Counted from the first letter of the stretch, positions 1 through 50,016 are shown. The stretch is DNA of 64,000 nt from an uncultured Candidatus Saccharibacteria bacterium (GCA_964597895.1 CAZQZS010000001.1:9238-73237); one strand, 5' to 3'. The notes: a model not told the origin generated them from the letters alone. Made by a program: numbers and translations.

Positions 1-284
<284 letters not shown>

Positions 285-3878: not shown

Positions 3879-4145
3879 ATGACTAAAGAACAACAAAATT
3901 TAATAAAGCGAATTAAAACAGCACAGGGTCATCTTGGCGCAATTGCCGCCATGGTCGAAAAAGACACTTACTGCATGGACATTATTAACCAGAACCATGC
4001 TGTTATAGAAGCCTTGCGTAAAGTTAATCAGTTAATTTTGGAAGGATATTTGGGTGAGTGTGCTCTTGATGCGGTCAACCATAAAAATCCAGCCAAGCGC
4101 AAAGCAGCAGTTGCTGAGTTAGTGAAGATTTATACTAAGAAATAA
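3879..4145 (+). CDS. CsoR/RcnR/FrmR-family (DUF156) metal/thiol-sensing transcriptional repressor
   Basis: GHLGAIAAMVEKDTYCMDIINQNHAVIEALRKV is the hallmark helix-2 region, including the YC(M/I)D motif. A second Cys sits in GECALDA with no His at the CsoR Y position. The stop is 1 nt from the trxB ATG. Confidence 0.8.
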   Translation: MTKEQQNLIKRIKTAQGHLGAIAAMVEKDTYCMDIINQNHAVIEALRKVNQLILEGYLGECALDAVNHKNPAKRKAAVAELVKIYTKK

Positions 4146-4146
4146 T

Positions 4147-5082
4147 ATGAACGACAAAATTTACAACACTATTATAATCGGAAGCGGTCCGGCTGGCCTC
4201 ACCGCCGCGTTATATGCCGGCCGTGCCGAATTAGAGCCATTGGTCATTGCCGGGCTGCAGCCCGGCGGACAACTTACCATCACAACTGATGTAGAAAATT
4301 TTCCAGGATTCCCAGAAGGTATTCAAGGTCCAGAGTTGATGCAGAAGATGACTGCGCAAGCTGAAAGATTTGGCGCCAAAATCGTTCAAGAGAATGTAGC
4401 TAGCGTGGATTTTTCTAGCAAACCGTACAAAATCAAGACAGATAGCAACGAATATCACGCCCATAGCGTAATCATCGCCACTGGTGCCGAAGTTAAGTGG
4501 CTAGGCCTACCCAACGAAACACGTCTTCGCGGTAAAGGCGTCACGGCCTGCGCGACTTGCGACGGCTTCTTCTTTAAGGATTTAGACATCGTGGTCATTG
4601 GCGGCGGAGATAGCGCCATGGAAGAAGCATTGTTTTTAACAAAATTCGGCAAGTCAGTTACGATTGTCCATCGTCGCGATGAATTCAAGGCTTCCAAGAT
4701 TATGCTCAAGCGGGCCCAAGAACACCCAAAGATTTCCTTCATCACTGATGTCACCGTGGTTGATATTTTGGGAGAAGATTCGTTTACCGGAATAAAGATC
4801 AAAGACAATAAGACCGGAGAAGAACGAGAGGTTGCAGCTGGGGGTTATTTTGTGGCCATTGGGCACTCGCCAGCGGTTCAAGTTTTTAAGGACGCCGGCG
4901 TAGAGCTGGATAGCAAGGGTTACATTGCTCAAAAACAGTTTACTCAAACAAATATAGAAGGCGTATTTGTAGCCGGAGATGTCCACGACCACCGCTACCG
5001 TCAAGCCATTTCTTCTGCAGGGGAGGGGTGTAAGGCAGCTCTTGATGCAGAGAAGTATCTTACGGAGTTAAATCAAGAATAG
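4147..5082 (+). CDS. trxB: thioredoxin-disulfide reductase
   Basis: GSGPAG FAD motif, CATC redox-active disulfide, GGGDSA NADPH motif, and a GDV...AAGEG C-terminal FAD region. Confidence 0.9.
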   Translation: MNDKIYNTIIIGSGPAGLTAALYAGRAELEPLVIAGLQPGGQLTITTDVENFPGFPEGIQGPELMQKMTAQAERFGAKIVQENVASVDFSSKPYKIKTDSNEYHAHSVIIATGAEVKWLGLPNETRLRGKGVTACATCDGFFFKDLDIVVIGGGDSAMEEALFLTKFGKSVTIVHRRDEFKASKIMLKRAQEHPKISFITDVTVVDILGEDSFTGIKIKDNKTGEEREVAAGGYFVAIGHSPAVQVFKDAGVELDSKGYIAQKQFTQTNIEGVFVAGDVHDHRYRQAISSAGEGCKAALDAEKYLTELNQE

Positions 5083-5088
5083 AAGTAT

Positions 5089-5194
5089 GTCATTCCTGGT
5101 CCCACCGCAGGTGGGAACCGGGAATCCACTAGACAGTCAAGATAATTTAATAGATCCCCGGTTCTCCGCGCTTTGCTCGGAGACCAGGGATGAC
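5089..5194. repeat. copy 1 (106 bp) of a dispersed repeat family with inverted termini GTCATTCCTGG ... CCAGGGATGAC
   Basis: Two internal imperfect hairpins. The conserved core AACCGGGAATCCACTAGACAG and ...GATCCCCGG... are shared with copy 2 (9238-9332). Confidence 0.6.
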
Positions 5195-5202
5195 CAAATA
5201 AT

Positions 5203-6414
5203 ATGAACAATCCCTTTGAATCAGCCAAACAGCAACTTCAGGCAGCGGCCGACGCAGCCAATTTGGACAAAAACAAAATTGCCGAATTGATGCACCCAGA
5301 TCGGTACATTGAGGTTTCTATTCCAGTGCAAATGGATGATGGCTCCCAAAAAATTTTTGAAGGTTTCCGCAGTCAGCATAACAATGCCCGGGGACCATAC
5401 AAAGGCGGTATTCGTTACCACCAAGATGTAAATTTAGACGAGGTGCGCGCTTTAAGTTTTTGGATGACTTTTAAGAATGCAGTCATTGACGTTCCTTTTG
5501 GTGGCGGTAAAGGTGGCATCATTGTAAACCCTAAGGAATTGTCTGAGGCTGAGCTAGAAAAACTGTCCCGCGGCTATATGCAAAAAATGTTTCGTAATTT
5601 TGGCCCGGAAATAGATGTTCCTGCCCCAGACGTAAACACTAACGGCCAGATTATGGGCTGGATGCGCAACGAGTACGAAAACCTCACCGGTACTGTCGCT
5701 CCAGGAGTTATTACAGGCAAAGCGATAGAAGATGGCGGCAGCGAGGGTCGCACCGAAGCAACCGGGTATGGCGGGGGGTATGTTTTGCGCGAAGCTTTGA
5801 AGGCAGGGTTAGTGTCGGATGATCGCAAGACTATCGCTGTGCAAGGGTTTGGTAATGTGGCGACTTACTTGGCCGAGTATGTCAAAGAACATGGATTCAA
5901 GGTGGTCGCTTTATCCGACAGCAAGGGCGGAGTGTATAACGAAGCTGGTATTGATATCTCTGCGGCCGAAGCACATAAAAAGGCCACAGGCTCTTTGAAT
6001 GGCTTGGAAGGTGCTACTTCTATCACCAACGAGCAGTTATTAGAACTAGATGTCGAAGTTTTGGTACCAGCGGCATTAGAAAATGTTATTACTAAAGTTA
6101 ATGCTGCAAAGATTAAAGCTAAGCTGATTTTGGAAATGGCCAATGGCCCAACGACACCTGAGGCCGACCAGATTTTGCAAGATAATGGCGTTGTGGTAAT
6201 TCCAGATATCTTGGCCAATAGCGGTGGCGTCTGCGTGAGTTATTACGAATGGTATCAGAATATGCATAATGAAAAGTGGGCCAAGCAGGATGTTTTGGCC
6301 AAGCTTGATGCGCAGATTACCAAGGCATTTGCAGATGTTCTCGCAGGCTCAAAACAGCATGCTACTTCACTTAGAACAGCAGCCTATATAGTCGCCGCCG
6401 AGCGAATTATCTGA
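5203..6414 (+). CDS. gdhA: NAD(P)-dependent glutamate dehydrogenase
   Basis: FGGGKGGI active-site glycine-rich motif (catalytic Lys) and a GFGNVA Rossmann dinucleotide-binding motif; length is typical of the Glu/Leu/Phe/Val dehydrogenase family. Confidence 0.9.
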   Translation: MNNPFESAKQQLQAAADAANLDKNKIAELMHPDRYIEVSIPVQMDDGSQKIFEGFRSQHNNARGPYKGGIRYHQDVNLDEVRALSFWMTFKNAVIDVPFGGGKGGIIVNPKELSEAELEKLSRGYMQKMFRNFGPEIDVPAPDVNTNGQIMGWMRNEYENLTGTVAPGVITGKAIEDGGSEGRTEATGYGGGYVLREALKAGLVSDDRKTIAVQGFGNVATYLAEYVKEHGFKVVALSDSKGGVYNEAGIDISAAEAHKKATGSLNGLEGATSITNEQLLELDVEVLVPAALENVITKVNAAKIKAKLILEMANGPTTPEADQILQDNGVVVIPDILANSGGVCVSYYEWYQNMHNEKWAKQDVLAKLDAQITKAFADVLAGSKQHATSLRTAAYIVAAERII

Positions 6415-6427
6415 GAAATGTAAGAAC

Positions 6428-6457
6428 AAAGCCAGTCGTTAGACTGGCTTTTGAGTT
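6428..6457. terminator. bidirectional terminator AAAGCCAGTC-gtta-GACTGGCTTT + U-tract
   Basis: 10-bp stem immediately after the gdh stop. It overlaps the 3' end of the convergent ORF 6439-6786. Confidence 0.55.
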
Positions 6458-6786
6458 GCGTCAATTGCTTGAACAATGAAGCGTATAGCAATGGTTGCTT
6501 TCTGTTGCTCTCTCTGTTCCAGGCAAACAAATTTTTGGCCAGCAAGAATAGCATACGGTATTTGACTGTCTAAGCGGTAAACGCTGGTGCAGCCAGGTTG
6601 CCTGATTTGCATCGTGGACTGCGTGCCACCTTGCATACACCATTCAAAGTAGTAGCGACTGGTTCTAAAGTGCACAAAGTCGCATTCGCCAAACTGGCCG
6701 GGGTAATATTTAACAAGATCAGGATTAGCTTCAATGTCCTCCGCGATCTTATCAAGGGTTGTTATTTGCGGGCATTCCTTGCTCAT
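6439..6786 (-). CDS. hypothetical protein (115 aa)
   Basis: GGAGGT RBS upstream of the ATG at 6786. No recognisable motif. Divergent from the second trxB-like gene. Confidence 0.45.
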   Translation of the reverse strand: MSKECPQITTLDKIAEDIEANPDLVKYYPGQFGECDFVHFRTSRYYFEWCMQGGTQSTMQIRQPGCTSVYRLDSQIPYAILAGQKFVCLEQREQQKATIAIRFIVQAIDATQKPV

Positions 6787-6836
6787 AACACTACCTCCGT
6801 GAAATTTTTTCTAGTATAGCATGTTAAAATTAATAT

Positions 6837-7751
6837 ATGTATGACGTCATTATTATCGGCGCCGGTCCAGCAGGCATGACAGCTGCCATATATACAGCGC
6901 GCAAAAAATTGAACACCTTGGTTTTAGCTAAAGAGGCCGGAGGTCAGATGGTGTGGAGTAGTGATGTCGAAAACTACACTGGCTTCAGCATGATCACTGG
7001 GGCCGACCTAACATTAAAATTTCAGGAGCACTTATCCAGTCTCAAAGAAGATTTAGAGGTCAAGCTCGGTATAGAAGTGGTTAGTATAGAAAAGAACATT
7101 ACCAGTTTTGAGGTTGGCGACAAGCAGGGTAATCAGTATTTTGCTAAGACAATTATAATTGCTTCTGGGAAAAACCCACGTCATTTGAACATTCCTGGTG
7201 AGAGTGAATTCTATGGTCATGGCGTGGCTACCTGCGCAACCTGCGACGCGCCTCTTTACAAAGGAAAAGATGTCGCAGTGATAGGTGGTGGAAATTCTGC
7301 TTTGGACGCAGTTTTGGCCTTGTCCAAAGTGGCCAAAACTGTGGCGGTTGTGAATATTAATCAAGCTTTATCTGGTGATTCAATTGTCAAAGAAAAAATT
7401 GAACATTCCGGTAATGTAAAAATATATAATAACACCAAAACTTTGTCTGTTTTAGGAGAGAAGGCCGTAACAGGTTTGGAGATTCATCAATTTGGTAAAG
7501 ACAAGGAAATATTGACAGTGTCTGGAGTGTTTGTGGAAATCGGCTATGAGCCAAGCATTGCTTTTGATCAACTTACTAAAAAGAATGAAAAAAACGAAAT
7601 TGTCGTGGACGGCAACTTGCAAACTAGCATACCTGGAATTTTTGCCGCCGGCGACATCAATGACGCCTGGGGCGAGCAAATTATTATCGCCGCCGGCGAA
7701 GGCGCCAAAGCTGCCATGGCCGTGAGCAACTACTTGAACCGACTAAAGTAG
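6837..7751 (+). CDS. second thioredoxin reductase-like FAD/NAD(P)-dependent disulfide oxidoreductase
   Basis: GAGPAG, CATC redox motif, GGGNSA, and a C-terminal GDINDAWGEQIIIAAGEG region. Paralogous to trxB at 4147. Confidence 0.8.
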   Translation: MYDVIIIGAGPAGMTAAIYTARKKLNTLVLAKEAGGQMVWSSDVENYTGFSMITGADLTLKFQEHLSSLKEDLEVKLGIEVVSIEKNITSFEVGDKQGNQYFAKTIIIASGKNPRHLNIPGESEFYGHGVATCATCDAPLYKGKDVAVIGGGNSALDAVLALSKVAKTVAVVNINQALSGDSIVKEKIEHSGNVKIYNNTKTLSVLGEKAVTGLEIHQFGKDKEILTVSGVFVEIGYEPSIAFDQLTKKNEKNEIVVDGNLQTSIPGIFAAGDINDAWGEQIIIAAGEGAKAAMAVSNYLNRLK

Positions 7752-7784
7752 TTTGCTAAGATAATTTGCTAAAGGAGGAAACTT

Positions 7785-8177
7785 ATGGATACTTTTAAGG
7801 GTTATTCGGAGAAGTATTTAGGAGATTATCTACTGCTTGGCTTAAAAGCCACAGCTTTGTGGTTATGCACTGCCATGTTTGTCAGAAAGATCCATATAAT
7901 GTCAGACGTCGCTCTGATTGGTGTATTGATTCTCGGCATAGTCGGTTTAACCAAAATGTGGAAATTAACCAGTAGGCACAGTAATCAGATTTTCCTTAGA
8001 CCTGCTTACTTGGCATTTCTTGGGGTAATGTGCGGTTGGGGTATTACTACACTTGACTGGAACGTCTTGTCTGTCGGCCTCGTGGCTATACTGCTGATCC
8101 CGATTAATTTGTTTATCGGACTTATGATTTGCTGGTTAGCTTTCGAACTTCGACCCATAGAAAAAAGGACTCAGTGA
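7785..8177 (+). CDS. hypothetical membrane protein (130 aa)
   Basis: AAAGGAGG RBS and 3-4 hydrophobic helices. Confidence 0.5.
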   Translation: MDTFKGYSEKYLGDYLLLGLKATALWLCTAMFVRKIHIMSDVALIGVLILGIVGLTKMWKLTSRHSNQIFLRPAYLAFLGVMCGWGITTLDWNVLSVGLVAILLIPINLFIGLMICWLAFELRPIEKRTQ

Positions 8178-8190
8178 GTCCTTTTAATTT
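8161..8190. terminator. bidirectional terminator A6GGACTC-agt-GAGTCCTTTT
   Basis: Hairpin with flanking A- and T-runs between convergent genes. Confidence 0.55.
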
Positions 8191-8753
8191 TAGTTATTTA
8201 CGCGTTCGACGTATGCGCCGCCTTCGCGAGTATCTACGCGCACGACATCACCTTCTTTGATGAACATTGGCGCCTGCACGCTCAGTCCAGTTTCAAGCTT
8301 GACTGGCTTGGTAACGTTACCACCGCTGTTACCGGTTACTCCTGGAGGAGCTTCTATGACTTTAAGATCAACTTTAATCGGCAGTTCTATAGAAACAGGT
8401 TTGCCGTTAAATCGCAAGATGATTACTTTTAAGCCTTCGGTCAAAAATGGTTCTTGTTCGGCTGTAATCTCTTTATCAAAATCAATCGTTTCAAAAGTTT
8501 CGTTATTCATGAAGTGGGTTCCGTCCTCATCCGCATAAAGGAAATTGGCGTTTTCGCGGGTGACGTCGGCACCTTCAACTTTTTCGCCGAATTTGAAGCT
8601 GTATTCTAAAACTTTACCAGTGATGACGTTGCGTAATTTTGCTTGCATTACCGGTTTACGTTGGGCAGTGCGCATGCGGTTAGACCAGATAACCTGGAAA
8701 GGTTCACCGTTCATAAGCACAATAGCACCTAGTTTTACATCGTTAAGATCCAT
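8190..8753 (-). CDS. efp: elongation factor P
   Basis: Full-length EF-P homology (KPGKG-equivalent loop, three-domain length, ...GDVVRVDTREGGAYVERV C-terminus). Confidence 0.9.
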   Translation of the reverse strand: MDLNDVKLGAIVLMNGEPFQVIWSNRMRTAQRKPVMQAKLRNVITGKVLEYSFKFGEKVEGADVTRENANFLYADEDGTHFMNNETFETIDFDKEITAEQEPFLTEGLKVIILRFNGKPVSIELPIKVDLKVIEAPPGVTGNSGGNVTKPVKLETGLSVQAPMFIKEGDVVRVDTREGGAYVERVNN

Positions 8754-8819
8754 CGTTTTATTACTTATATTTTTCTAAATATCTTTATCATTTCCGTTCA
8801 GGCGAGAATCAATTTTTGA

Positions 8820-8847
8820 TTCTAGGATTTAGAATTTTTAATTGCAA
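8820..8847 (-). promoter_or_regulatory. putative efp promoter TTGCAA-N17-TAGAAT (minus strand)
   Basis: Read on the minus strand directly downstream of structured element B and ~65 nt upstream of the efp ATG. Confidence 0.45.
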
Positions 8848-8851
8848 ATTT

Positions 8852-8952
8852 GCCGCCCACTTTTTCGGGGGCGCTCTCATCCGCCTTACGCCCGCCTAAC
8901 AGCGGGCTATGGCGGACTGGCGCTAGCTTACCCCCTCTTAAGTGGGTGGCGG
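8852..8952 (-). ncRNA. copy B of a ~100-nt multi-helix structured hairpin element (structured RNA or REP-like hairpin); strand of function uncertain
   Basis: Outer helix CCGCCCACTT/AAGTGGGTGG encloses nested helices GGGGG/CCCCC, GCGC/GCGC, TCCGCC/GGCGGA, CCCGC/GCGGG and loop TGTTAG. It is the reverse complement of copy A (49897-49993), with compensatory changes in three helices and identical bulges. It lies 15 nt after the rpsR stop and 4 nt before the efp promoter. Confidence 0.45.
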
Positions 8953-8967
8953 AGAAGTGAAATACAA

Positions 8968-9213
8968 TTAAGCGGCCACAAAAGGCACGAGTGCCATGTG
9001 GCGAGCCCGCTTTAGCGCGATGGTAATCATGCGCTGGTGCTTAGGGCAAGACCCAGTGCGGTTGCGGGATAAAATTTTAGAGTGTGGAGACATGAAGCGG
9101 CGCAAAGTTTGGGTGTCTTTGTAGTCTACAGTGCTAACTTTATTAGCACAGAAATAGCAGACTTTTTTGACTGGTGCCGCGTCACGGTCTCGATTGTTCT
9201 TATTGTAAGCCAT
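8968..9213 (-). CDS. rpsR: 30S ribosomal protein S18
   Basis: KKVCYFC...VDYKDTQTLRRF...IALKRARHMALVP is the canonical S18 sequence. Confidence 0.9.
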   Translation of the reverse strand: MAYNKNNRDRDAAPVKKVCYFCANKVSTVDYKDTQTLRRFMSPHSKILSRNRTGSCPKHQRMITIALKRARHMALVPFVAA

Positions 9214-9237
9214 AGTTATAATTGATAATAGTACAAT

Positions 9238-9332
9238 GTCATCCCTGGCGCCGAAGGCGACTGGGGATCCATTAGCTGTGTAGTGGATTCCCGGTTCCTC
9301 GTCCCGCTTTGCGGAACTCGGCCCAGGAATGA
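9238..9332. repeat. copy 2 (95 bp, inverted relative to copy 1) of the GTCATTCC...GGATGAC repeat family
   Basis: Plus strand reads GTCATCCCTGG...CCAGGAATGAC. Its reverse complement shares the termini and the AACCGGGAATCCACTACACAG core with copy 1. Located between ssb and rpsR. Confidence 0.6.
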
Positions 9333-9343
9333 CAAATTTGGAT

Positions 9344-9835
9344 TTAAAAAGGAATATCGTCTACATTAATGTCTTCGCCCTGCTGAATAGTAGGGAGTTC
9401 TTCTACAGGTTCTGGCTGAGACATTGCTGATCCAGCCATTGCGCCTGCGCCTGCACCGGCACCTGCGGCTGCATAGCCTCCGCTGGCACTACCGTCACCA
9501 CGACCGCCATCTAACATAATCATGTTATCAGCGATAATTTCGGTTTTGTAGTTCTTCTTTCCGGTCTGTTGGTCGTCCCAGCTGCGGGTCTGCAAGCGGC
9601 CTTCAATATAGACGCGCTGGCCCTTTTTTAGGTATTGAGCAGCAATCTCGCCGAGTTTACGCCAGAGCACCACATTGTGGTATTCAACGTTTTCTACTTT
9701 TTGGCCAGTTTGCTGGTTGGTGTAGACGAAGTTAGTAGCAAGACCAATCTGACAGACGCTGGCGCCAGAAGGTGTAGTCTTGAGTTCTGGATCACGGGTC
9801 AGACGACCGATGATCATTGCTTTGTTTAAATCCAT
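9344..9835 (-). CDS. ssb: single-stranded DNA-binding protein
   Basis: OB-fold N-terminus (MDLNKAMIIGRLTRDPEL...), a Gly/Ala-rich linker and an acidic DDIPF tail. ATG at 9835 chosen; the ORF track extends 55 codons further upstream. Confidence 0.85.
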   Translation of the reverse strand: MDLNKAMIIGRLTRDPELKTTPSGASVCQIGLATNFVYTNQQTGQKVENVEYHNVVLWRKLGEIAAQYLKKGQRVYIEGRLQTRSWDDQQTGKKNYKTEIIADNMIMLDGGRGDGSASGGYAAAGAGAGAGAMAGSAMSQPEPVEELPTIQQGEDINVDDIPF

Positions 9836-10032
9836 ATTCGTAGTTCCGGTTTCTTGGCCGCAGTTTTCTGCCCGGCAAAGCCGTGCTTGCAAACTGCTTT
9901 TGGCCGATAGCTTTGTCGTTTTACTGCGCTGCTCACTTTGCGTACTTACCAGTACGCGCCGTTCGCTGCTCGTAAAATTCCTCGCTCTCGACCAAACCAA
10001 GGAACCTTGGTTAATGGTTTAAGTTTAAATTC

Positions 10033-10503
10033 TTAAGCGACTTCTTCGTTGAGTGCTTTTTCAATTTCTTCTTCCAACTTTTCGTTGGTCACAGGCGCGG
10101 CCTTTTTGGCCGACTTAGCTTCTTTAGCAGCAGGAGCTTCGCTTGCATCTTCTGCAGGAATGCGTCGCTTGATTTTGGACTGCACGATACGGTCTTTTTC
10201 TAAGCGTTCTAGGTGCTCGTCAATGTTGACGATGATGTGTCGGATGATGTTCGCTTTTTGAGTGCGAATCTTGGCATCCAATGCAGCAAGACCTTTGCCT
10301 TCCATGTCAAAATTGATTACCCCGTAATGACCGTTACGGGTCTTACCAATTTGGTAAGCGAGTTTCTTTTTGCCCAATTGTTCGTGGGCAAGGTTCTGTC
10401 CGCCAAAATCAGCAACCATTTGCTCGATTTGGCTAGACGTGGCAGGTACCTGATCATCAGATACGCTAGAGGCGAGAATGTACATAAGTTCATATCTCGG
10501 CAT
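10033..10503 (-). CDS. rpsF: 30S ribosomal protein S6
   Basis: MPRYELMYIL... S6 N-terminus with an acidic/Lys-rich C-terminal tail. Classic rpsF-ssb-rpsR gene order. Confidence 0.9.
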   Translation of the reverse strand: MPRYELMYILASSVSDDQVPATSSQIEQMVADFGGQNLAHEQLGKKKLAYQIGKTRNGHYGVINFDMEGKGLAALDAKIRTQKANIIRHIIVNIDEHLERLEKDRIVQSKIKRRIPAEDASEAPAAKEAKSAKKAAPVTNEKLEEEIEKALNEEVA

Positions 10504-10694
10504 AAGGAATTTCTCCTTATTCCTACGCCCTATTTGGCGCAGGAAACATTAATTAATTGTACAATCTTGGCCTTGGCTAGGGGATTGCCTGGTTCTATAT
10601 TAGCAGAGCTAAATAAAAAAAGAACCAAGAAAAACCTAAATTTGAGCCAAAATTTCCTTAATTCTACCTAAAATCTTTGGTTTTGGCAAGTACC

Positions 10695-10717
10695 AAAAAA
10701 GACCCATTTGGGTCTTT
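10695..10717. terminator. bidirectional terminator A6GACCCA-ttt-GGGTCTTT
   Basis: Perfect hairpin with an A6/T-run, between the ychF stop and the rpsF upstream region. Confidence 0.6.
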
Positions 10718-11792
10718 AGACATTGAAGAGAAAGTGTACCACATCGCCGTCTTGAACGACGTATTCTTTGCCTTCGGTGCGGAGCCAGCCTTTGGCTCGG
10801 GCATTGGCATAAGACCCAGCCTCTAAAAGCTTGTCCCAAGCAATGGTCTCTGCGCGGATGAAGCCGTGTTCAAAATCTGTGTGAATTACCCCGGCAGCCT
10901 GCGGCGCTTTGGTACCGGCCGGGCAAGTCCAGGCCTTGCTTTCTTTTGGACCGGCAGTAATGAAGGTGATCAATCCCAAAGTTTTGTACGCAGAAGTAAT
11001 AATCCGATCCAGGCCGCTTTCTTTCATACCAAGTTCATTCATATATTCGGCGCGGTCTGCGTCTTCTAGTTCGGCCAACTCGCTTTCTAGTTTTGCGTCC
11101 ACGACAATGGCATTCTCCGGCAGGGAAGCGGGGATGTTTTCGAACTGATGTGTGTTCATATCAAAAGTTGAATTGAACGCATACAAGAACGGTTTGGTGG
11201 TTAGCAGTTGAACTTCTTTAGCAGCTTCTTTTTCTTCTTCGCTCAAGGTGACTGTGTTGGCCATCTGACCAGCTTCTAGCGCTGTTTTGTACCGTTCTAA
11301 AACACCTTGGCGAATCTTCGCCATCCGGTCACCAGACTTCACTTGCTTCGCATTAGACTCTAAGCGTTTTTCCACGTTGGCTAAATCAGCCAGCTGAAGC
11401 TCGATTGCAATAGTAGCCATATCACGTTCGGCGTCGACGTTGCCAGCCACGTGAATGATGTCATTGTTACTAAAAACGCGAGTCACTTCCATAATGGCGT
11501 CTACTTCGCGAATGTGAGATAAAAATTGATTCCCTAAACCTTCACCTTTGTGCGCGCCGGAAACCAAACCAGCGATATCCACGAACTCTATAGTAGTTGG
11601 AACTATCTTTTCAGATTTTTCTTGAGCTGCTAATTTAGCAAGGCGTTCATCGGGTACGGCAACAACCCCAACGTTTGGATCGATGGTGGCAAAAGGATAG
11701 TTCGCAGCTTCAACCTGCGATTTGGTGATGGCGTTAAATAAAGTGGACTTACCAACGTTTGGCAGTCCAACGATTCCGATTTGAAAGCTCAT
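10716..11792 (-). CDS. ychF: ribosome-binding ATPase YchF (Obg-family GTPase with TGS domain)
   Basis: GIVGLPNVGKSTLFNA P-loop, NVAGNVD G4-like motif, and a C-terminal TGS domain (...GKEYVVQDGDVVHFLFNV). ATG at 11792. Confidence 0.9.
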   Translation of the reverse strand: MSFQIGIVGLPNVGKSTLFNAITKSQVEAANYPFATIDPNVGVVAVPDERLAKLAAQEKSEKIVPTTIEFVDIAGLVSGAHKGEGLGNQFLSHIREVDAIMEVTRVFSNNDIIHVAGNVDAERDMATIAIELQLADLANVEKRLESNAKQVKSGDRMAKIRQGVLERYKTALEAGQMANTVTLSEEEKEAAKEVQLLTTKPFLYAFNSTFDMNTHQFENIPASLPENAIVVDAKLESELAELEDADRAEYMNELGMKESGLDRIITSAYKTLGLITFITAGPKESKAWTCPAGTKAPQAAGVIHTDFEHGFIRAETIAWDKLLEAGSYANARAKGWLRTEGKEYVVQDGDVVHFLFNV

Positions 11793-12004
11793 AACTTGAA
11801 TATTGTGCCTGAAAACGGTCGTTTTGTCCATCGTTTAAGTCTGCTACAATAATAGTGTCCGAATTCTACTTAGGAGGTAATGAATGAGAGATCATTGTCC
11901 CTACGCACGTCGATTCCGCACGAGATTTTATACCACGCCGGTACGCAGTTTCGTACCACCATGGATGCGGCGATATAAACGACGTTGTTGATCTTTATCT
12001 TACC

Positions 12005-12035
12005 GAGCCCTGCCAATCGCGGGGCTTTTCTTTTC
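12005..12035 (+). terminator. hairpin GCCCTGC-caat-GCGGGGC + TTTTCTTTTC
   Basis: Stem-loop plus U-tract directly after the 32-codon unannotated ORF (11880-11978). Confidence 0.5.
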
Positions 12036-12050
12036 ACTTATTGACATTGG

Positions 12051-12069
12051 CCCGAAAATTGAGTATAGT
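12051..12069 (+). promoter_or_regulatory. sigma70 promoter TTGACA-N17-TATAGT
   Basis: 11/12 match to consensus; -35 at 12051-12056, -10 at 12064-12069. Drives the ORF at 12147. Confidence 0.6.
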
Positions 12070-12146
12070 GTTAATTACCGCCTAGCAGTTTTTGGTGTAT
12101 CGAATAGGGGATGTGTCCAAAATTCAAAATAGGAGAAATATAGTGT

Positions 12147-12446
12147 ATGCAAACTGCTTCTGCCCAAGTCGTGAGCCTGATGGAAAGTGGTACGATCGGA
12201 TTGGCGAGCCTTAGCCCGTCGCTCAGAGAGTCTTTAAAATCGTCGCTTAAAAAAGATTGTTGTCCCGACATGAAAGACAGCGACGTCGAGAAAGTGTTTC
12301 GGAATATCCTCGGTGCAACCACGTTCGACGTTAAGTCGCACGGCATGCCCGATGACGGTTACGTCACTTTCGAGAGCGTGATCCCCGGTCACAAAAAACT
12401 TTTCGTCACTTCCCGCATGCGACTGCAGCAGTACATTCGCGCATGA
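12147..12446 (+). CDS. hypothetical protein (99 aa)
   Basis: AGGAGA RBS, own promoter and strong terminator. Local GC content (~52%) is higher than surrounding DNA. No recognisable motif. Confidence 0.55.
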   Translation: MQTASAQVVSLMESGTIGLASLSPSLRESLKSSLKKDCCPDMKDSDVEKVFRNILGATTFDVKSHGMPDDGYVTFESVIPGHKKLFVTSRMRLQQYIRA

Positions 12447-12451
12447 ACCCC

Positions 12452-12490
12452 GCGGCCCAGCTTTTACAAGCTTGGGCCGCTTTCTTTTTC
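12452..12490 (+). terminator. rho-independent terminator GCGGCCCAGCTT-ttac-AAGCTTGGGCCGC + TTTCTTTTT
   Basis: 12-bp perfect stem plus U-tract. Confidence 0.7.
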
Positions 12491-12532
12491 CACATTGCCA
12501 TTTGATATAATAAAAGAAAGTCTGGAGGGACT

Positions 12533-12877
12533 ATGGCACAAATCAGTTCAGCACCTTTTATCTATATCAAAGAGGTTTGGTCTGAGCATCAGGCCGAATT
12601 CTATGAGCGCGAAGCCGAATGGCTGTTAGCTAATCTTGGAGGGCGTCTGCGCAAGCAAACTTTTCGGAGTAGCGAAGATTTTGCTCTAAGTATTCTTGAA
12701 TACCTCTTTGCTACAAACTGGTTTCGATCGGTCCGGCGCGGGCGCTGCCAGGCAATTATCTTGGAACGCAAGCGCGGGCAAATGTTTTTCGTTATTCGTA
12801 TGCAGGATATTCCTGCGATTAGAACTTGGGCAAATCGTCGGCATCAAAGTCGGCGACACCTGAGGAGAAGCGTGTGA
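12533..12877 (+). CDS. hypothetical basic protein (114 aa)
   Basis: GGAGGG RBS and a TGaTATAAT extended -10 at 12503-12512 upstream. Arg-rich C-terminus. Confidence 0.5.
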   Translation: MAQISSAPFIYIKEVWSEHQAEFYEREAEWLLANLGGRLRKQTFRSSEDFALSILEYLFATNWFRSVRRGRCQAIILERKRGQMFFVIRMQDIPAIRTWANRRHQSRRHLRRSV

Positions 12878-12896
12878 AAACGCGCTTTTTAGTTTT
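12869..12896 (+). terminator. hairpin GCGTG-tgaaaa-CGCGC + TTTTTAGTTTTTT
   Basis: Overlaps the stop codon of the 12533 gene. Confidence 0.5.
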
Positions 12897-12976
12897 TTGC
12901 ATGATTGACAAGATAATATCAATGGCTTATTATAGTCAGTTAGTATAAAGTGAAGAAAAATTTAAAGGAGTGGATT

Positions 12977-13501
12977 ATGAGTGAAGTTGCAAGTACTTTG
13001 GCAGGCTCGCGGAGTCCGTATGAATTTGGGAAATCTTTAGAATACTCGGTCAAGCTAAAAGTTGATCGCAGTATAAGCGCGCATGATCGGTTGAGTGCTA
13101 CTTTCGTCGGCGGCCGGATTTTATCTGGCACATTCCAAGGGATTGAGCTGCTTCCGTTCAGAAGCAATTTGCCGGATGAAGTTGAGCTGGTGTTTTTTCC
13201 TGTCGAAGGGTATTGCGAAAGCGCCAAGCATGAAAGGGTGAGGCGCGGATTGGTTCAGGATATTGCTGCTCAATTTGCCTACAATGCAATAGATCCCAAC
13301 TTTGCTGACTGGCATGATAACGTTGACCTGTGGCGAGGCAAAAACGGACAATGGGAGTTTGTTAGCTTTTGGAAGAACGAAGACGAGGAATACAGCCGGG
13401 TTACTTTCGGAACTCACGGTGATAGTATTAGGATCTTCGATCGTCCGCCGGTGGCCTGCGGGATTCGACTTCCATCCATGGGTTCGACATCTTTGGTATA
13501 G
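12977..13501 (+). CDS. hypothetical protein (174 aa)
   Basis: AAAGGAG RBS and a TTGACA-N17-TATTAT promoter at 12909-12937. ATG at 12977 preferred over the track's 12950. Confidence 0.5.
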   Translation: MSEVASTLAGSRSPYEFGKSLEYSVKLKVDRSISAHDRLSATFVGGRILSGTFQGIELLPFRSNLPDEVELVFFPVEGYCESAKHERVRRGLVQDIAAQFAYNAIDPNFADWHDNVDLWRGKNGQWEFVSFWKNEDEEYSRVTFGTHGDSIRIFDRPPVACGIRLPSMGSTSLV

Positions 13502-13594
13502 CCGGGGGTGCTTGCTAGTTACTACCCACTGCATTTGCGGTGGGCTTTTTATTTCCCTTTTCAGGCATCAGTTCAAATTGCTATACTATGCAAT

Positions 13595-14974
13595 ATGAAC
13601 GTAGAACCATCCATTTTCAAAGCTTACGACATCCGCGGGATTTACCCGACTCATTTAAATGAAGAGACCGCATACGCGGTTGGTCGTGCTTTTGCGACAT
13701 TAATGATTGGAGAAAATCAGGGCCGCCAGCTAACTGTTGGCGTGTCCAGAGACATGCGTGTTTCATCTGAATCACTAAAAGCCGAGATGATTCGTGGCAT
13801 CACTGACACGGGTGTGAATGTGGTAGACATGGGTTTGCTTTCAACAGGCGCTTATTATTTTGGCGTGAGCTATTTTAATTTAGATGGTGGGGTTGAGATT
13901 ACTGCTTCCCACAATGGCAAAGAATATAATGGTTTTAAAATTGTCCGCACTCGTAGTGTGGCTATGGGAGGTAAGACAGGTATTAGCCAGATTCATGAAA
14001 TTATTTCTAAAGATACCTTTTTACCTGTCACCGATAAAAAAGGAACTGTGGAAGTCAAAGAAGGTGTAACTGATTTATCTATCGATGAGTTTTTGAAGTT
14101 TACTCCTAACCATAAAACAAAGCCTTTAAAGATAGTATTAGACCCTGCCAACGCCATGGGTATTGTCGATATGGACGCATTGTTTGCTAAGTTTGGGGAA
14201 GACTGCGAACTGATAAAAATGAATTACGAACTGGATGGCACATTTCCAAACCATGAAGCTGATCCTTCTAAGCCGGAGAACCGCGTGCAAATTTCCGAGA
14301 AGGTTAAAGAAGTTGGTGCTGACTTAGGCATTACCACGGATGGTGACGACGACCGTATTTTTATAATCGACGAAAAAGGTGATACCATCCCATCTTCTAT
14401 TTTGTACACGCTCATGGCTAAGATTGAACATGAGGAGAATCCGGGCGAACCGCTAGCTTACGAGATTCGTTTAGGTAATCTAATCGAAGAAGAATTCCCG
14501 GACGTTAAGTTGGTCCAGACCCCAGTAGGACATTCACTGATTAAAGCCGAGATGATTAAGCATCATGCTTTGTTTGGCGGTGAAATTAGCGGTCACTACT
14601 TCTTTCGTTTGCCATGGGGAACCTACGAAGCACCAATGCTTCTTGTAGTTAAATTCCTCACATGGCTGTCTACCCAAAATCAACCGTTGTCCGAGTTAGC
14701 CGCGCCTTATAAACGTTATGTTTCTTCCGGAGAGATCAACGCTTCGGTGGGGACTCGTACAGAGATTGAACGAATTATTTCAGCTGTAAGAGAGAAGTAT
14801 AAAGACGGCGATGAGATTACTATCGATGGGGTAAAAGTTTCTTACCCTGACTACTGGTTCAGCGTGCGCGCTTCCAACACAGAACCGTTAATTCGACTAG
14901 TAGTTGAAGCGAAGGACCGTGGTGTAATGGAGCAAAAACGAGACGAGCTACTTGCCATGATCAAGTCAAATTAA
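13595..14974 (+). CDS. phosphomannomutase/phosphoglucomutase (alpha-D-phosphohexomutase)
   Basis: TASHNGKEYNGFK active-site Ser loop, GITTDGDDDR metal-binding loop, and GGEISGHYFF sugar-binding loop. ATG at 13595 (MNVEPSIFKAYDIRG). Confidence 0.85.
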   Translation: MNVEPSIFKAYDIRGIYPTHLNEETAYAVGRAFATLMIGENQGRQLTVGVSRDMRVSSESLKAEMIRGITDTGVNVVDMGLLSTGAYYFGVSYFNLDGGVEITASHNGKEYNGFKIVRTRSVAMGGKTGISQIHEIISKDTFLPVTDKKGTVEVKEGVTDLSIDEFLKFTPNHKTKPLKIVLDPANAMGIVDMDALFAKFGEDCELIKMNYELDGTFPNHEADPSKPENRVQISEKVKEVGADLGITTDGDDDRIFIIDEKGDTIPSSILYTLMAKIEHEENPGEPLAYEIRLGNLIEEEFPDVKLVQTPVGHSLIKAEMIKHHALFGGEISGHYFFRLPWGTYEAPMLLVVKFLTWLSTQNQPLSELAAPYKRYVSSGEINASVGTRTEIERIISAVREKYKDGDEITIDGVKVSYPDYWFSVRASNTEPLIRLVVEAKDRGVMEQKRDELLAMIKSN

Positions 14975-15002
14975 GCCGGACCTCATTGGTCCGGTTTTTT
15001 TT
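14974..15002 (+). terminator. rho-independent terminator CCGGACC-tcatt-GGTCCGG + T8
   Basis: Perfect stem plus U8, followed by a TGaTATACT extended -10 for the next operon. Confidence 0.7.
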
Positions 15003-15027
15003 GATATACTACGCTTAAGGAGGGATT

Positions 15028-15336
15028 ATGGAGATTAGTGAAGACAGAGTAATCGAAATTATGCGCATCGGAGCTGAAGTTCCAAGTTTTCATTCAAATC
15101 TGGTCAAAATAGTTGAAACCAATCCCCAGTATTCTTTCATAGATGATTTAGGGGAAGCGGCTTTACCCGGCCTGCGAAAATTATTGGCCGAAGACTTCGA
15201 TGATCACTTGGTGGTTGTTTATCTTCTTGGTAAGCACGAATCCAATCAGCCTGATATTCCAGAAGAGAGTCGCGGGCGAGTGAAGCAGTTACGACAGATT
15301 TGGCTGGAGTTTTTCAGAGAAAAGAATTTTGTTTAA
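15028..15336 (+). CDS. hypothetical acidic protein (102 aa), first gene of a 3-gene small-protein operon
   Basis: AAGGAGGG RBS with an extended -10 upstream. No motif recognised. Confidence 0.5.
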   Translation: MEISEDRVIEIMRIGAEVPSFHSNLVKIVETNPQYSFIDDLGEAALPGLRKLLAEDFDDHLVVVYLLGKHESNQPDIPEESRGRVKQLRQIWLEFFREKNFV

Positions 15337-15348
15337 GTAGGAGGGCTT

Positions 15349-15576
15349 ATGCTTACAGAAAAGCAGATAGATAAAGCCGCAAAGTTGGAAGCCTTGACTA
15401 GTGGCTATCATCGCACTGGTTTAACTGCTAGCTGCGCGCCGCAAAGATGTCCGATAGTTGTGGCTAGTTCGGAGGAGGGCGAGAAGAAAACTGCAAAGGT
15501 GTCAATCAGTTTGGAAGAAAATCCTGTCACAGGAGAACGACGCCTTGTGCAAAAATATCGGAGGGAAGATGTATAG
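15349..15576 (+). CDS. hypothetical protein (75 aa)
   Basis: TAGGAGGG RBS. Contains a CAPQRC pair of cysteines. Confidence 0.45.
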   Translation: MLTEKQIDKAAKLEALTSGYHRTGLTASCAPQRCPIVVASSEEGEKKTAKVSISLEENPVTGERRLVQKYRREDV

Positions 15577-15796
15577 CATAGAGACATTGATGGATATGAT
15601 TTTCACCGAAGCTGCCGATGGTCCAGCACCGAAATGCATGGATAAGATGACTACTGCGGAACTTCGCGACATGCAAAGGCGAAGCGCTGAAACATACTCC
15701 AGGTTGCCGCTAGCTAAATCTGCAAAACCGAGAGTTTTGAAGGCTCGCGTACTCCTAGACGATGAATCAGGAGGAATGCGCATGCGCTTTGTCTGA
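15569..15796 (+). CDS. hypothetical protein (75 aa)
   Basis: GGAGGG RBS. The ATG at 15569 overlaps the previous stop by 8 nt, suggesting translational coupling. Confidence 0.45.
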   Translation: MYSIETLMDMIFTEAADGPAPKCMDKMTTAELRDMQRRSAETYSRLPLAKSAKPRVLKARVLLDDESGGMRMRFV

Positions 15797-15810
15797 ATCA
15801 ATCAGAAATA

Positions 15811-15844
15811 AAAACGGCCTAGCTTACAGCAGGCCGATTTTTTG
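15811..15844. terminator. bidirectional terminator AAAAA-CGGCCT-agcttacagc-AGGCCG-TTTTTTGTTT
   Basis: Serves both the + operon and the convergent trpS; the trpS stop lies in the loop. Confidence 0.7.
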
Positions 15845-16783
15845 TTTAACTTCTTCCATTGTTTTGCTGGCAATTTCGCGGGCACGCTCGGCGCCGTCTT
15901 CGAGAATTTTGTCGAGTTTCTTTTTATCTGCCAGTAGAGCAGATTTTTTCTTGCGGAAGTCTGCAAAGTAGTTTGAGACTGACTTAGCAAGTTCGGTTTT
16001 TAAATCGCTGTAGCGAATGTCGCCTGATTTTTGCGCTGCAACAAACTGTTTGTGAGTGGCTTCGTCGCCGAAGTAGGCGAGGAGATCTAACAGGTTCTGC
16101 GCCCCTTCAGGAGTGGTCACAGCCTTTTTGAGTTTTGCTTCAATTTCATTCGGTGAATCATCTATATATAAAGGTTCGTCACCGGTTTTGCTCATCTTCT
16201 TTGCCGGGTCTTTGAGACTCATTATGCGCAGCGGCTTTTTTACAAAAGGCTGAGGCTCTGGGAAAGTTTGGCTAAATTGCTTGTTGAATTTCCGAGCGAT
16301 TACGCGAGAGAGTTCGATGTGCTGAACTTGATCTTCACCAACAGGAACAAAATTGGGTTTGTACATCAAGATGTCTGCAGCCATGAGCGCGGGGTAGGTG
16401 AGGAGTCCTGCATTAACAGAATCCTTTTGTGCGCGACCCTTATCTTTATATTGGGTCATGCGTTCTAATTCTCCAATCGGTGTGATGCAGTTAAAAATCC
16501 AAGCTAGTTCGGCATGTTCTAAGACATGATTTTGAATGAAGATAACTGACTTTTTTGGATCAAGTCCTGCGGCGATATATTCAGCGGCAACTTCAATTGT
16601 ATCTTTGCGAAGTTGCTTTGGGTCGCGGGGGACAGTAAGGGCATGCAAATCCGCGACAAAAAAGTAGCATTGCAGCTTACCCTCATTTTGAATGTCTATA
16701 AATTGCTTTAACGCACCTAAGTAGTTGCCAATATGCATGCGGCCAGTGGCCTGCACGCCGGAGAGAATCGTCTCTTTTTTCAT
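15824..16783 (-). CDS. trpS: tryptophan--tRNA ligase
   Basis: Class I HIGN motif (TGRMHIGNYLG) and KMSKT (KMSKS-like) motif. No T-box leader; the upstream gap is only ~120 nt. Confidence 0.9.
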   Translation of the reverse strand: MKKETILSGVQATGRMHIGNYLGALKQFIDIQNEGKLQCYFFVADLHALTVPRDPKQLRKDTIEVAAEYIAAGLDPKKSVIFIQNHVLEHAELAWIFNCITPIGELERMTQYKDKGRAQKDSVNAGLLTYPALMAADILMYKPNFVPVGEDQVQHIELSRVIARKFNKQFSQTFPEPQPFVKKPLRIMSLKDPAKKMSKTGDEPLYIDDSPNEIEAKLKKAVTTPEGAQNLLDLLAYFGDEATHKQFVAAQKSGDIRYSDLKTELAKSVSNYFADFRKKKSALLADKKKLDKILEDGAERAREIASKTMEEVKQKIGLL

Positions 16784-16907
16784 AAAATCATTATACTAGA
16801 AAATATTAACATTTCCTAAGACTCAATTATGGTTAAATTAGCTAAGCATTGATTTTTTAGTCTATAATTGGTATAGTTGGAAATCAATTTAGAGGAGGGG
16901 AGAATAT

Positions 16908-17282
16908 ATGTCACAGGTTGTCGTGGACAATATTATCAAAGGTAGTCTGGAGGATTTGGCGGTTTTAATGGCAGTGTATGGAATCAAGGCCGCATCGGAT
17001 GGCCAGGATTCAGTAAACAATAGGCGAGGCAGAATCTTACGAAAGAAGGTTGAGTCTGCCAAAGCTCAGCTTGAGGATGACCGGGATTCTCATGCTCGGT
17101 ATCAAAGAAGTTTGGGCGCGAACCGAATACACTCTGCTGAGGAAGAGGTTTCAGAAAATGAAGCCTATGCCATGGCTCGGGCGGAACTTGATTTAGAACT
17201 TGAAAGGGTTCGCATGTGGCGAAAAGAAGGACTCGACTACAAACAGTGCGTGGCCGAGATGCACAAATTCTTAGAGAAGTAG
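16908..17282 (+). CDS. hypothetical protein (124 aa)
   Basis: GAGGAGGGGAG RBS, promoter-like TTGATT...TATAGT upstream, predicted helical/charged. Confidence 0.5.
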   Translation: MSQVVVDNIIKGSLEDLAVLMAVYGIKAASDGQDSVNNRRGRILRKKVESAKAQLEDDRDSHARYQRSLGANRIHSAEEEVSENEAYAMARAELDLELERVRMWRKEGLDYKQCVAEMHKFLEK

Positions 17283-17293
17283 GAGGACAGAAT

Positions 17294-17644
17294 ATGTTAG
17301 TTGGTTGCCCAAATTTTATAGAGTGTGCAAGGTTCGTTTCACTGAATGAAGATGGGGTTATTGAAGAGCATGACTATCTACTCAAAGGTAAGTTCAATCG
17401 GCTTCCAGGGTTATTTACAAGCAAGAAGTGTAAATTTTCCAATATGGAATATCCGGATTTGAGCAAGATTCAAAAAGCTTGCGATATTTGCGGTCGAATG
17501 CTAATTCCTCGTCATGATCAATCTTTACCTCAACACTATCCTGACTCAAAGACAACTTTTTCTCCGGAGGGTTATTGTGGTTCCGGTGTTGGATCTGGTC
17601 GTGGTAAAGTCAAGCAACGAACCAATGCAAGGCACTACCCATAA
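17294..17644 (+). CDS. hypothetical Cys-rich protein (116 aa), possible zinc-ribbon
   Basis: TAGGAGGA RBS. CPNFIEC ... CKF ... CDIC cysteine pairs. ATG at 17294 preferred over the track's 17216. Confidence 0.45.
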   Translation: MLVGCPNFIECARFVSLNEDGVIEEHDYLLKGKFNRLPGLFTSKKCKFSNMEYPDLSKIQKACDICGRMLIPRHDQSLPQHYPDSKTTFSPEGYCGSGVGSGRGKVKQRTNARHYP

Positions 17645-17645
17645 C

Positions 17646-17690
17646 CAAAAAAGCGGCGAACGAATAATATCGTTCGACCGCTTCTTTTTT
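17646..17690. terminator. bidirectional terminator A6GCGGcGAACG-ataatat-CGTTCGaCCGCTTcT6
   Basis: Long hairpin flanked by A6 and T6. Confidence 0.7.
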
Positions 17691-17698
17691 ATGCGTGT

Positions 17699-17772
17699 GT
17701 CATTCCGGGTCCGCTAAGGCGGGCGAAGAATCTCACGGAGATCCTTCGGTCGCATTGCTCCCTCAGGATGAC
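17699..17772. repeat. copy 3 (74 bp, shorter and more divergent) of the GTCATTCC...GGATGAC repeat family
   Basis: GTCATTCCGGG-[hairpin TCCGC/GCGGG]-AAGAATC-tcac-...GATCC...CCCTCAGGATGAC. Same orientation as copy 1. Confidence 0.5.
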
Positions 17773-17800
17773 AAAGAAATTTCCAGGAATGATAATTGTT

Positions 17801-49881: not shown

Positions 49882-49896
49882 AGAAGTTTATTATCG

Positions 49897-49993
49897 CTAC
49901 CCACTTTAGAGGGAGTAAGCTAGCGCCAGCCGGCCATAGCTCGCTGTCAGGCGAGCGAAAGGCCGGTGAGAGCGCTCCCGGAGAAGTGGGTGG
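49897..49993 (+). ncRNA. copy A of the ~97-nt multi-helix structured hairpin element (structured RNA or REP-like hairpin)
   Basis: P1 CTACCCACTT/AAGTGGGTGG. Nested helices GGGA/TCCC, GCGC/GCGC, (G)CCGGCC/GGCCGG(T), GCTCGC/GCGAGC. Hexaloop TGTCAG. Conserved bulge GTAAGCTA and internal loops CAG/TGAGA and ATA/CGAAA. Two G-T pairs favour the plus sense. Sits between the LCP gene stop and the der ATG. Confidence 0.45.
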
Positions 49994-50016
49994 CTTAACT
50001 GAATTCTGAAATATAT

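Follow-up and report, generated by a model that had tools for sequence, protein, structure and literature searches.

Paired palindromic repeats with features of NTS/Ssn-related motifs between the genes of a Patescibacteria genome

The 64-kb window analyzed here, that is, the whole stretch of Patescibacteria DNA under study, harbors three copies of a dispersed palindromic repeat, and two further copies lie just past its right end in a close relative. In each element one hairpin module occurs twice, in opposite orientations, and what an initial annotation of the window had taken for inverted termini are the outer ends of two such modules. We regard it as probable that these loci represent a lineage-specific, non-coding palindromic repeat following the grammar of the NTS/Ssn motifs, which has recently been inserting between genes of this Patescibacteria genome. 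Judging from its sequence and architecture, this mobile palindromic DNA repeat appears to be a long-stem, paired variant of the hairpin family of NTS and Ssn-related motifs (dRS3/NIME-like), and the elements probably belong to the Ssn system. They behave like a REPIN, as a non-autonomous hairpin doublet without target duplication. The initial annotation had overlooked that the termini are two inverted copies of a single module, which carries the signature of NTS and Ssn-related motifs.

Copies and architecture of the element

The terminal motif GTCATYCCNGG has five matches in the 64-kb window, where shuffled sequences lead one to expect 0.10, and all of them are at the termini of copies 1 to 3 (both ends of copies 1 and 2 and the left end of copy 3). 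For the complete module, GTCATYCCNGG-N(8-38)-CNGGGRATC, the window has four matches where 0.00 are expected. No further convincing module was found in the window with a looser grammar (GTCAT, a stem of at least 5 bp, then C). One candidate fourth copy, a GTCATTCC...GGGATGAC pair at 55327-55388, was rejected as a chance match because it is located inside a coding gene. The initial annotation had reported three copies with conserved inverted termini, a core common to the two long ones, a GATCCCC tract and a shorter, more divergent third copy, and all of this was confirmed, together with the flanking genes, apart from the end of copy 2, which is 9333 and not 9332 (Table 1). The core common to copies 1 and 2, GGAACCGGGAATCCACTA(G/C)ACAG, is a 23-nt match with 96% identity.

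Table 1. Repeat copies, their parts and the neighboring features (window coordinates unless another contig is named)
Feature	Position	Strand	Description
Copy 1	5089-5194	+	106 bp; between trxB stop (5082) and gdh start (5203)
Copy 1, L module	5089-5126	+	GTC-ATTCCTGG-(TCCCACC GCA GGTGGGA)-ACCGGGAAT-C
Copy 1, tail and AT-rich linker	5127-5152		
Copy 1, R module	5153-5194	-	inverted; read on the - strand: GTC-ATCCCTGG-(inner hairpin)-ACCGGGGAT-C
Copy 2	9238-9333	-	96 bp, inverted; between ssb stop (9344) and rpsR start (9213)
Copy 2, R module	9238-9269		
Copy 2, L module	9286-9333		
Copy 3	17699-17772	+	74 bp, short and degenerate; retains GTCATTCC...GAATC and GATCC...AGGATGAC
Copy 4	L157 13669-13773; L160 3121-3225		full-length
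Copy 5	L157 14004-14103; L160 3456-3555		full-length
trxB (thioredoxin reductase)	4147-5082	+	Pyr_redox_2, 1.7e-54; upstream of copy 1
gdh (Glu/Leu/Phe/Val dehydrogenase)	5203-6414	+	downstream of copy 1
rpsR (S18)	8968-9213	-	downstream of copy 2
ssb	9344-9835	-	upstream of copy 2; coordinates per the 163-aa gene call in relatives
Terminator-like hairpin	17648-17690		bidirectional, T/A runs; between the 16908-17644 operon and copy 3
RNase J gene	17801-19684	-	copy 3 lies in its 3' flank

Copies 4 and 5 are located approximately 1.7 and 2 kb past the right end of the window, in a relative that is 99% identical. They fill successive intergenic gaps around an ORF for a predicted membrane protein of 75 aa, between fpg and a 114-aa ORF. 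Separated by 230 bp, with the small ORF between them, they are the nearest neighbors among the five copies, all of which are single units and do not form arrays. Five copies in about 74 kb (the window plus the stretch beyond its right end in the relative) would extrapolate to tens of copies per genome.

Four of the five copies occupy almost the entire spacer between co-directional genes and are oriented with transcription, beginning 1-10 nt past a stop codon and finishing 8-24 nt ahead of the next start; copy 2 does so within an S6-SSB-S18 operon. No predicted intrinsic terminator overlaps an element among the five. Co-orientation with transcription, which the initial annotation had claimed for the three copies of the window, holds for copies 1 and 2 and does not hold for copy 3, which is placed between the RNase J stop (17801) and the bidirectional terminator. 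If it is transcribed, copy 3 is most likely antisense, from the RNase J gene, and co-orientation is therefore found in only four of five copies, which is not significant.

A module, read from the outside inward, begins with (T)GTC and the outer stem AT(T/C)CCTGG, continues through an inner stem-loop that varies, and closes with the return arm CCGGG(A/G)AT, then C and the tail CA(C/T)TA. The alignment of the five copies gives the consensus (T)GTCATTCCTGG-(variable hairpin)-ACCGGGAATCCACTA - AT-rich linker - TAATGGATCCCCGG-(variable hairpin)-CCAGGGATGAC(A), with modules of 32-48 nt and full elements of 96-106 bp. The L modules pair ATTCC with GGAAT and the R modules ATCCC with GGGAT, and this is invariant in all four full-length copies. 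Because the difference between L and R, from T-A to C-G, is compensatory, it favors hairpins at the level of the module. The inner stem-loops, of 12-31 nt, are wholly different in sequence from one module to another and still self-complementary, as had been described for the inner segments. Between the L modules of copies 2 and 5 the difference is a paired insertion, which lengthens the stem by one T·G pair.

Folded as single-stranded DNA, the copy 1 and copy 2 modules reach -8 to -14 kcal/mol, and their z values range from -2.4 to -5.3 (L and R modules of copy 1: -12.5 kcal/mol, z -4.3, and -13.9 kcal/mol, z -5.3, respectively). Whole elements fold better than shuffles on both strands (z -3.2 to -5.1). 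The modules of copy 3 are weak when folded alone (z -1.0 and -0.45), and the whole element forms one long hairpin (z -3.2). There is an alternative topology in which the two ends of an element pair with each other, as a four-way structure or a long hairpin; since the modules are inverted, both topologies are possible by construction. At stem position 6, in the forward reading, a T·G wobble is present in every intact module except the copy 5 R module, which has A in place of the T. With the modules inverted, each strand has one T·G wobble and one A·C mismatch, and thus neither transcript is favored.

Gain and loss among relatives

Exact protein matches put the window in a Patescibacteria lineage close to "Candidatus Doudnabacteria", names found in the 90%-identity EF-P cluster. 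The comparison included near-identical relatives with 98-99% DNA identity (L001, L128, L157, L122, L137, L138 and L160), an intermediate relative with 83-95% identity (L002, from GCA_964594755.1) and outgroups whose EF-P is 87-90% identical (L139-L149). At the trxB-gdh site the two genes overlap (ATGA) in the outgroups, while the window and its near-identical relatives have the 106-bp element, which is also present in L002 with 5 substitutions. At the ssb-rpsR site the spacer measures 16-20 nt in the outgroups and 20 nt, empty, in L002, against a 96-bp element in the window and the near-identical relatives. Copy 1 was identified in L001 and L002 and copy 2 in L001, L137 and L138; L122 and L128 have copy 3 in identical form. 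Searching about 115 kb from the outgroups turned up no element. The two intercistronic copies were inserted recently. Since L002 has copy 1 and an empty site for copy 2, the insertion of copy 1 preceded the divergence from L002, and that of copy 2 came later. No consistent direct repeat or target-site duplication flanks the five copies, nor is there one at the two sites where filled and empty states can be compared; the latter have only an ambiguous microhomology of 3-4 nt (TATG at the first site, ATT at the second) and a few extra AT-rich bases.

Copy 1 differs from its L002 counterpart at 5 of 106 positions (4.7%), and the other intergenic DNA of the block at 4 of 88 (4.5%), while third codon positions in the block diverge by 11-13.5%. 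Among the substitutions in the L002 copy, one disrupts pairing in the inner stem of the L module and another, in the outer R stem, is wobble-compatible. No inference on selection is drawn from the divergence of copy 1, because the block is a recombination mosaic. The csoR-like gene (3879-4145) and a 115-aa ORF (6439-6786) each have a single difference from L002 (0.3-0.4%), against 4-9% in the neighboring trxB, gdh and a second trxB-like gene and 12-20% outside the block, a mosaic that suggests recent recombination patches.

Other variable sequences are present in the region. Genes for large serine recombinases (Resolvase and Recombinase domains) with small cargo were found in L001 (3120-8421 and 18235-20225), L139 (15537-17036) and L146 (434-2053); these insertions are strain-variable integrative elements at differing points of an otherwise syntenic region. 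Downstream of efp, L002 has a short lone hairpin with the same lead-in, GTCATTCCGTGAATGCGGAAC (14255-14285), which may be a leftover single module, and a decayed version of it is located at about 8785-8815 of the window. A different palindromic repeat of 100 nt, the first family of the initial annotation, occurs in the window at 8852-8951 (+) and 49895-49994 (-), in L002 at 14316-14418 and in L160 at 3930-3960. It has conserved ends, GCCGCCCACTT...AAGTGGGTGGCGG, and no Rfam match, and its inner hairpin in L002 is an unrelated, self-complementary sequence. It is not found in this form in the rpsR-efp spacers of the outgroups, which have long inverted repeats of their own (L139 9860-10005, L149 9875-10005).

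Relationship to NTS and Ssn-related motifs

The Neisseria Transformation Sequence (NTS), CGTCATTCCCGCGMAVGCGGGAATCYRG, encompasses the dRS3 repeat ATTCCC-N8-GGGAAT, and its hairpin is bound and cut by SsnA, a single-domain GIY-YIG nuclease of 94 aa, only as single-stranded DNA and on one strand only (Chenal et al. 2025, PMC11893778). The GTC ahead of the palindrome matters for cleavage by SsnA, and the C just after the palindrome is the most critical position for binding (PMC11893778). Ssn-related motifs (SRM) are hairpins of 20-50 nt that flank ssn genes in many phyla; the published family comes mostly from Pseudomonadati and Patescibacteria are not mentioned, and the spread of Ssn-type hairpins to new loci is only hypothesized in that paper (PMC11893778).

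The elements described here have the corresponding features. GTCAT starts all six modules of the window and all four modules of copies 4 and 5. The base ahead of GTC is T or C in nine of the ten modules, which fits HGTCWY, and is G in the R module of copy 1. The C directly 3' of the palindrome is present in all intact modules (GGGAAT-C or GGGGAT-C) and also in copy 3 (GAAT-C and AGGAT-C). The L module has in common with NTS GTCATTCC, GGGAATC and the following Y and R of the NTS consensus, and NTS and SRM have the same GTC followed by a palindrome that begins with ATTCC/ATCCC and ends with GGAAT/GGGAT, then C. They are likewise dispersed, intergenic hairpins of 20-50 nt. However, NTS and SRM have a loop of 3-5 nt where the present elements have a variable second stem-loop, and the latter are fixed inverted L+R pairs with a conserved CCAYTA tail in a Patescibacteria host. 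Because the long inner hairpin replaces the short loop, the published SRM search string had no match in the window and relatives, and NTS, with up to 3 mismatches, had none either. There was also no match to dRS3 (ATTCCC-N8-GGGAAT) with up to 1 mismatch; in comparison with dRS3, the arms of the L module are ATTCCTGG/CCGGGAAT, 18-28 nt apart. The resemblance to NTS and SRM rests on about 17 conserved positions of flank and stem, and it may reflect convergence on a GC-rich hairpin instead of kinship. NIMEs, which are dRS3-RS-dRS3 units (PMC1797815), likewise have a short low-GC spacer between two GC-rich palindromic ATTCC...GGAAT repeats and are intergenic and strain-variable. They form long arrays beside surface-protein genes, whereas the elements found here are single units in housekeeping operons.

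No Ssn-like GIY-YIG gene was detected in the 64-kb window or in about 60 kb of DNA from close relatives, much of which overlaps the window; the sole GIY-YIG domain found there belongs to UvrC (23046-24905). A scan of species-representative genomes with a degenerate module pattern returned at least 119 loci from many phyla, and the genome of this organism is outside the matches listed. Among those listed are Alphaproteobacteria (Methylocystis, Bradyrhizobium), Kiritimatiellia, Chloroflexota, Endomicrobium and Fibrobacter, and most of the listed modules fold as full hairpins with variable inner parts. Over the 120 distinct modules listed, the free stem position covaries (TA 56, CG 43, CA 12, TG 9; Fisher p = 4.6e-13). 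The SRM string is matched by 8 of these 120 modules, 6 of them with the shortest inner parts, and since the modules that match are nearly all short, the long ones can be seen as a length variant of SRM. A reverse module follows within 170 nt downstream in 34 of the 118 forward modules listed, against 8 upstream, and the convergent pairs among the matches listed measure 77-149 nt in total, typically about 105 nt. This indicates that the paired architecture is a general feature of the superfamily.

At two of these loci a single-domain GIY-YIG gene adjoins the module: one of 94 aa in a Rhodospirillales MAG (L064, 5040-5660; PF01541, E = 4e-14) and one of 91 aa in a Fibrobacter sp. MAG (L079, 5400-5960; PF01541, E = 5e-18). 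Both were found by tblastn. In the Fibrobacter locus the gene has hairpins upstream and, in inverted orientation, downstream, which is the published SRM-ssn-SRM layout. The hairpins of the two loci are of the GTCATYCCCGG...CCGGGRATC type, and the downstream repeats of the Fibrobacter locus are of the inverted GATCCTCGC...GCGAGGATGAC type, similar to the copy 3 R module. With the two Ssn-like proteins as queries, a profile search gave at least 7985 matches, most of them in Alphaproteobacteria. In a metagenome scan, the strict L-module pattern had only 5 homologous chance matches, in GC-rich coding DNA. A viral scan had 7 chance matches, 6 of them in one homologous region, apparently coding, that related viral contigs share, and 1 unrelated.

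The element would be functional when its DNA is single-stranded and extrudes as a hairpin, as at a replication fork or in incoming transforming DNA, and the inversion of the modules would let each DNA strand show one 'forward' module. Small single-domain GIY-YIG nucleases (Ssn) bind such hairpins in other bacteria and cut 5' of GTC. We infer that an Ssn-type enzyme, which may be encoded elsewhere in the genome or may once have been, acts on these elements and drives their spread or turnover, and the mechanism of insertion is part of the same inference. Effects on the flanking genes would be incidental, and the elements would be tolerated between co-transcribed genes because they carry no terminator. 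To our knowledge, Ssn enzymes are nucleases and not transposases, and we know of no mechanism through which they could copy a hairpin pair. The window also encodes a ComEC-type 'Competence' protein (59919-61370, +; PF03772 with DUF4131), which indicates a DNA-uptake channel and is relevant because the Neisseria Ssn/NTS systems act on incoming single-stranded DNA.

Alternative explanations and implications

The copies could be REPIN-type elements, in which an inverted pair of REP hairpins is copied by a single-copy RAYT of the IS200/IS605 Y1 family, an explanation that we consider unlikely. RAYT enzymes act on single-stranded hairpins and leave no target duplication. The inverted doublet of hairpin modules fits this explanation, as two inverted hairpins form a larger one, and so do the exclusively intergenic location and the absence of a target-site duplication in the five copies and two filled-versus-empty comparisons. 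The REPINs and BIMEs of Pseudomonas and E. coli are likewise inverted hairpin doublets of about 100 bp, intergenic, non-autonomous and without target duplication, and they are presumed to be processed in the form of single-stranded hairpins, as proposed here. Nevertheless, the present elements have no sequence similarity to REPs and lack the conserved GTAG/CTAC tetranucleotide. A RAYT-like gene was not found by tblastn in the window, the relatives and the at least 119 loci of other phyla, a weak test with an E. coli sequence as query, and the genes that adjoin the module in other phyla are of the GIY-YIG and not the Y1 type.

A cis-acting RNA is quite unlikely. Under this explanation the transcribed hairpins would be mRNA stabilizers or processing sites that uncouple trxB from gdh and ssb from rpsR, which is close to the role in mRNA stability or processing that the initial annotation had suggested. 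It agrees with the orientation of the four copies between co-directional genes and with the lack of an intrinsic terminator, by which the element would be in the mRNA; RNase J is encoded nearby, and REP hairpins in E. coli protect upstream mRNA. Several results argue against it. First, both operon junctions are empty in the outgroups (0-20 nt), one of them also in the closer relative L002, and these operons therefore work without the elements. Furthermore, there is no Rfam match at the gathering threshold in the whole window or at E <= 5 in 4900-17900, both strands fold equally well, and either transcript would have an A·C mismatch in one module. In addition, copy 3 would be antisense in the 3' region of RNase J, and the orthologous copy of L002 has pair-breaking changes and is no better conserved than other intergenic DNA. 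Finally, the module is found in unrelated contexts across phyla among the matches listed. A dedicated role in mRNA processing is thus not supported, and of the two families that had been proposed, MITE/REP-like or structured RNA, the REP-like one stands (hairpin-forming, intergenic, gained and lost among relatives), while the structured RNA does not. Incidental effects are possible, such as protection of mRNA 3' ends or an outward -35 box of the ATGACA type. The right terminus, ATGACA, resembles such a box, with a -10-like hexamer 17 nt further on at copy 3 (17768-17796, +) and arguably at copy 2 (9238-9213, -). The elements could create outward-facing promoters, and two of the five copies show putative boxes.

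An ordinary MITE, that is, an internally deleted derivative of a DDE-type insertion sequence mobilized in trans through 11-bp terminal inverted repeats, is very unlikely: the termini (GTCATYCCTGG/CCAGGRATGAC), the size of about 100 bp and the insertion polymorphism would suit it, but no copy has a direct repeat of fixed length, no transposase or longer element with these ends is present in the window or the DNA of the relatives, and the supposed terminal repeats are the outer arms of two self-contained, internally covarying hairpins. The initial annotation had named target-site duplications and a transposase as the marks of a plain MITE. Correia elements (CREE) of Neisseria and other MITEs are likewise bounded by inverted repeats, about 100-150 bp long, located between genes and capable of being co-transcribed. 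Correia elements have 26-bp terminal inverted repeats and a TA target duplication, neither of which is seen here.

Filled and empty sites among the relatives provide direct evidence, by comparison, for the gain of these hairpin pairs at new loci. Among the matches listed, roughly 30% of the hairpins form convergent pairs of about 105 bp, which suggests a general REPIN-like 'doublet' architecture not emphasized so far. More speculatively, and with considerable doubt on our part, the inverted hairpin pair, and not the single hairpin, might be what moves in Ssn/GIY-YIG systems, which would make it the counterpart of a REPIN for a third class of hairpin-handling enzymes that are not transposases. 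If so, transposition of such elements would have its first direct evidence here, and the clean insertions exactly where stop and start codons meet in essential operons, among them a 4-nt ATGA overlap, would hint at insertion targeted to junctions. For genome annotation, the elements account for odd gaps of 100-130 nt in tightly packed operons and warn against calling them regulatory RNAs. Bacteria of the candidate phyla radiation have tiny genomes, scavenge DNA and carry ComEC; if the link to Ssn holds, a recently described system would extend to this group.
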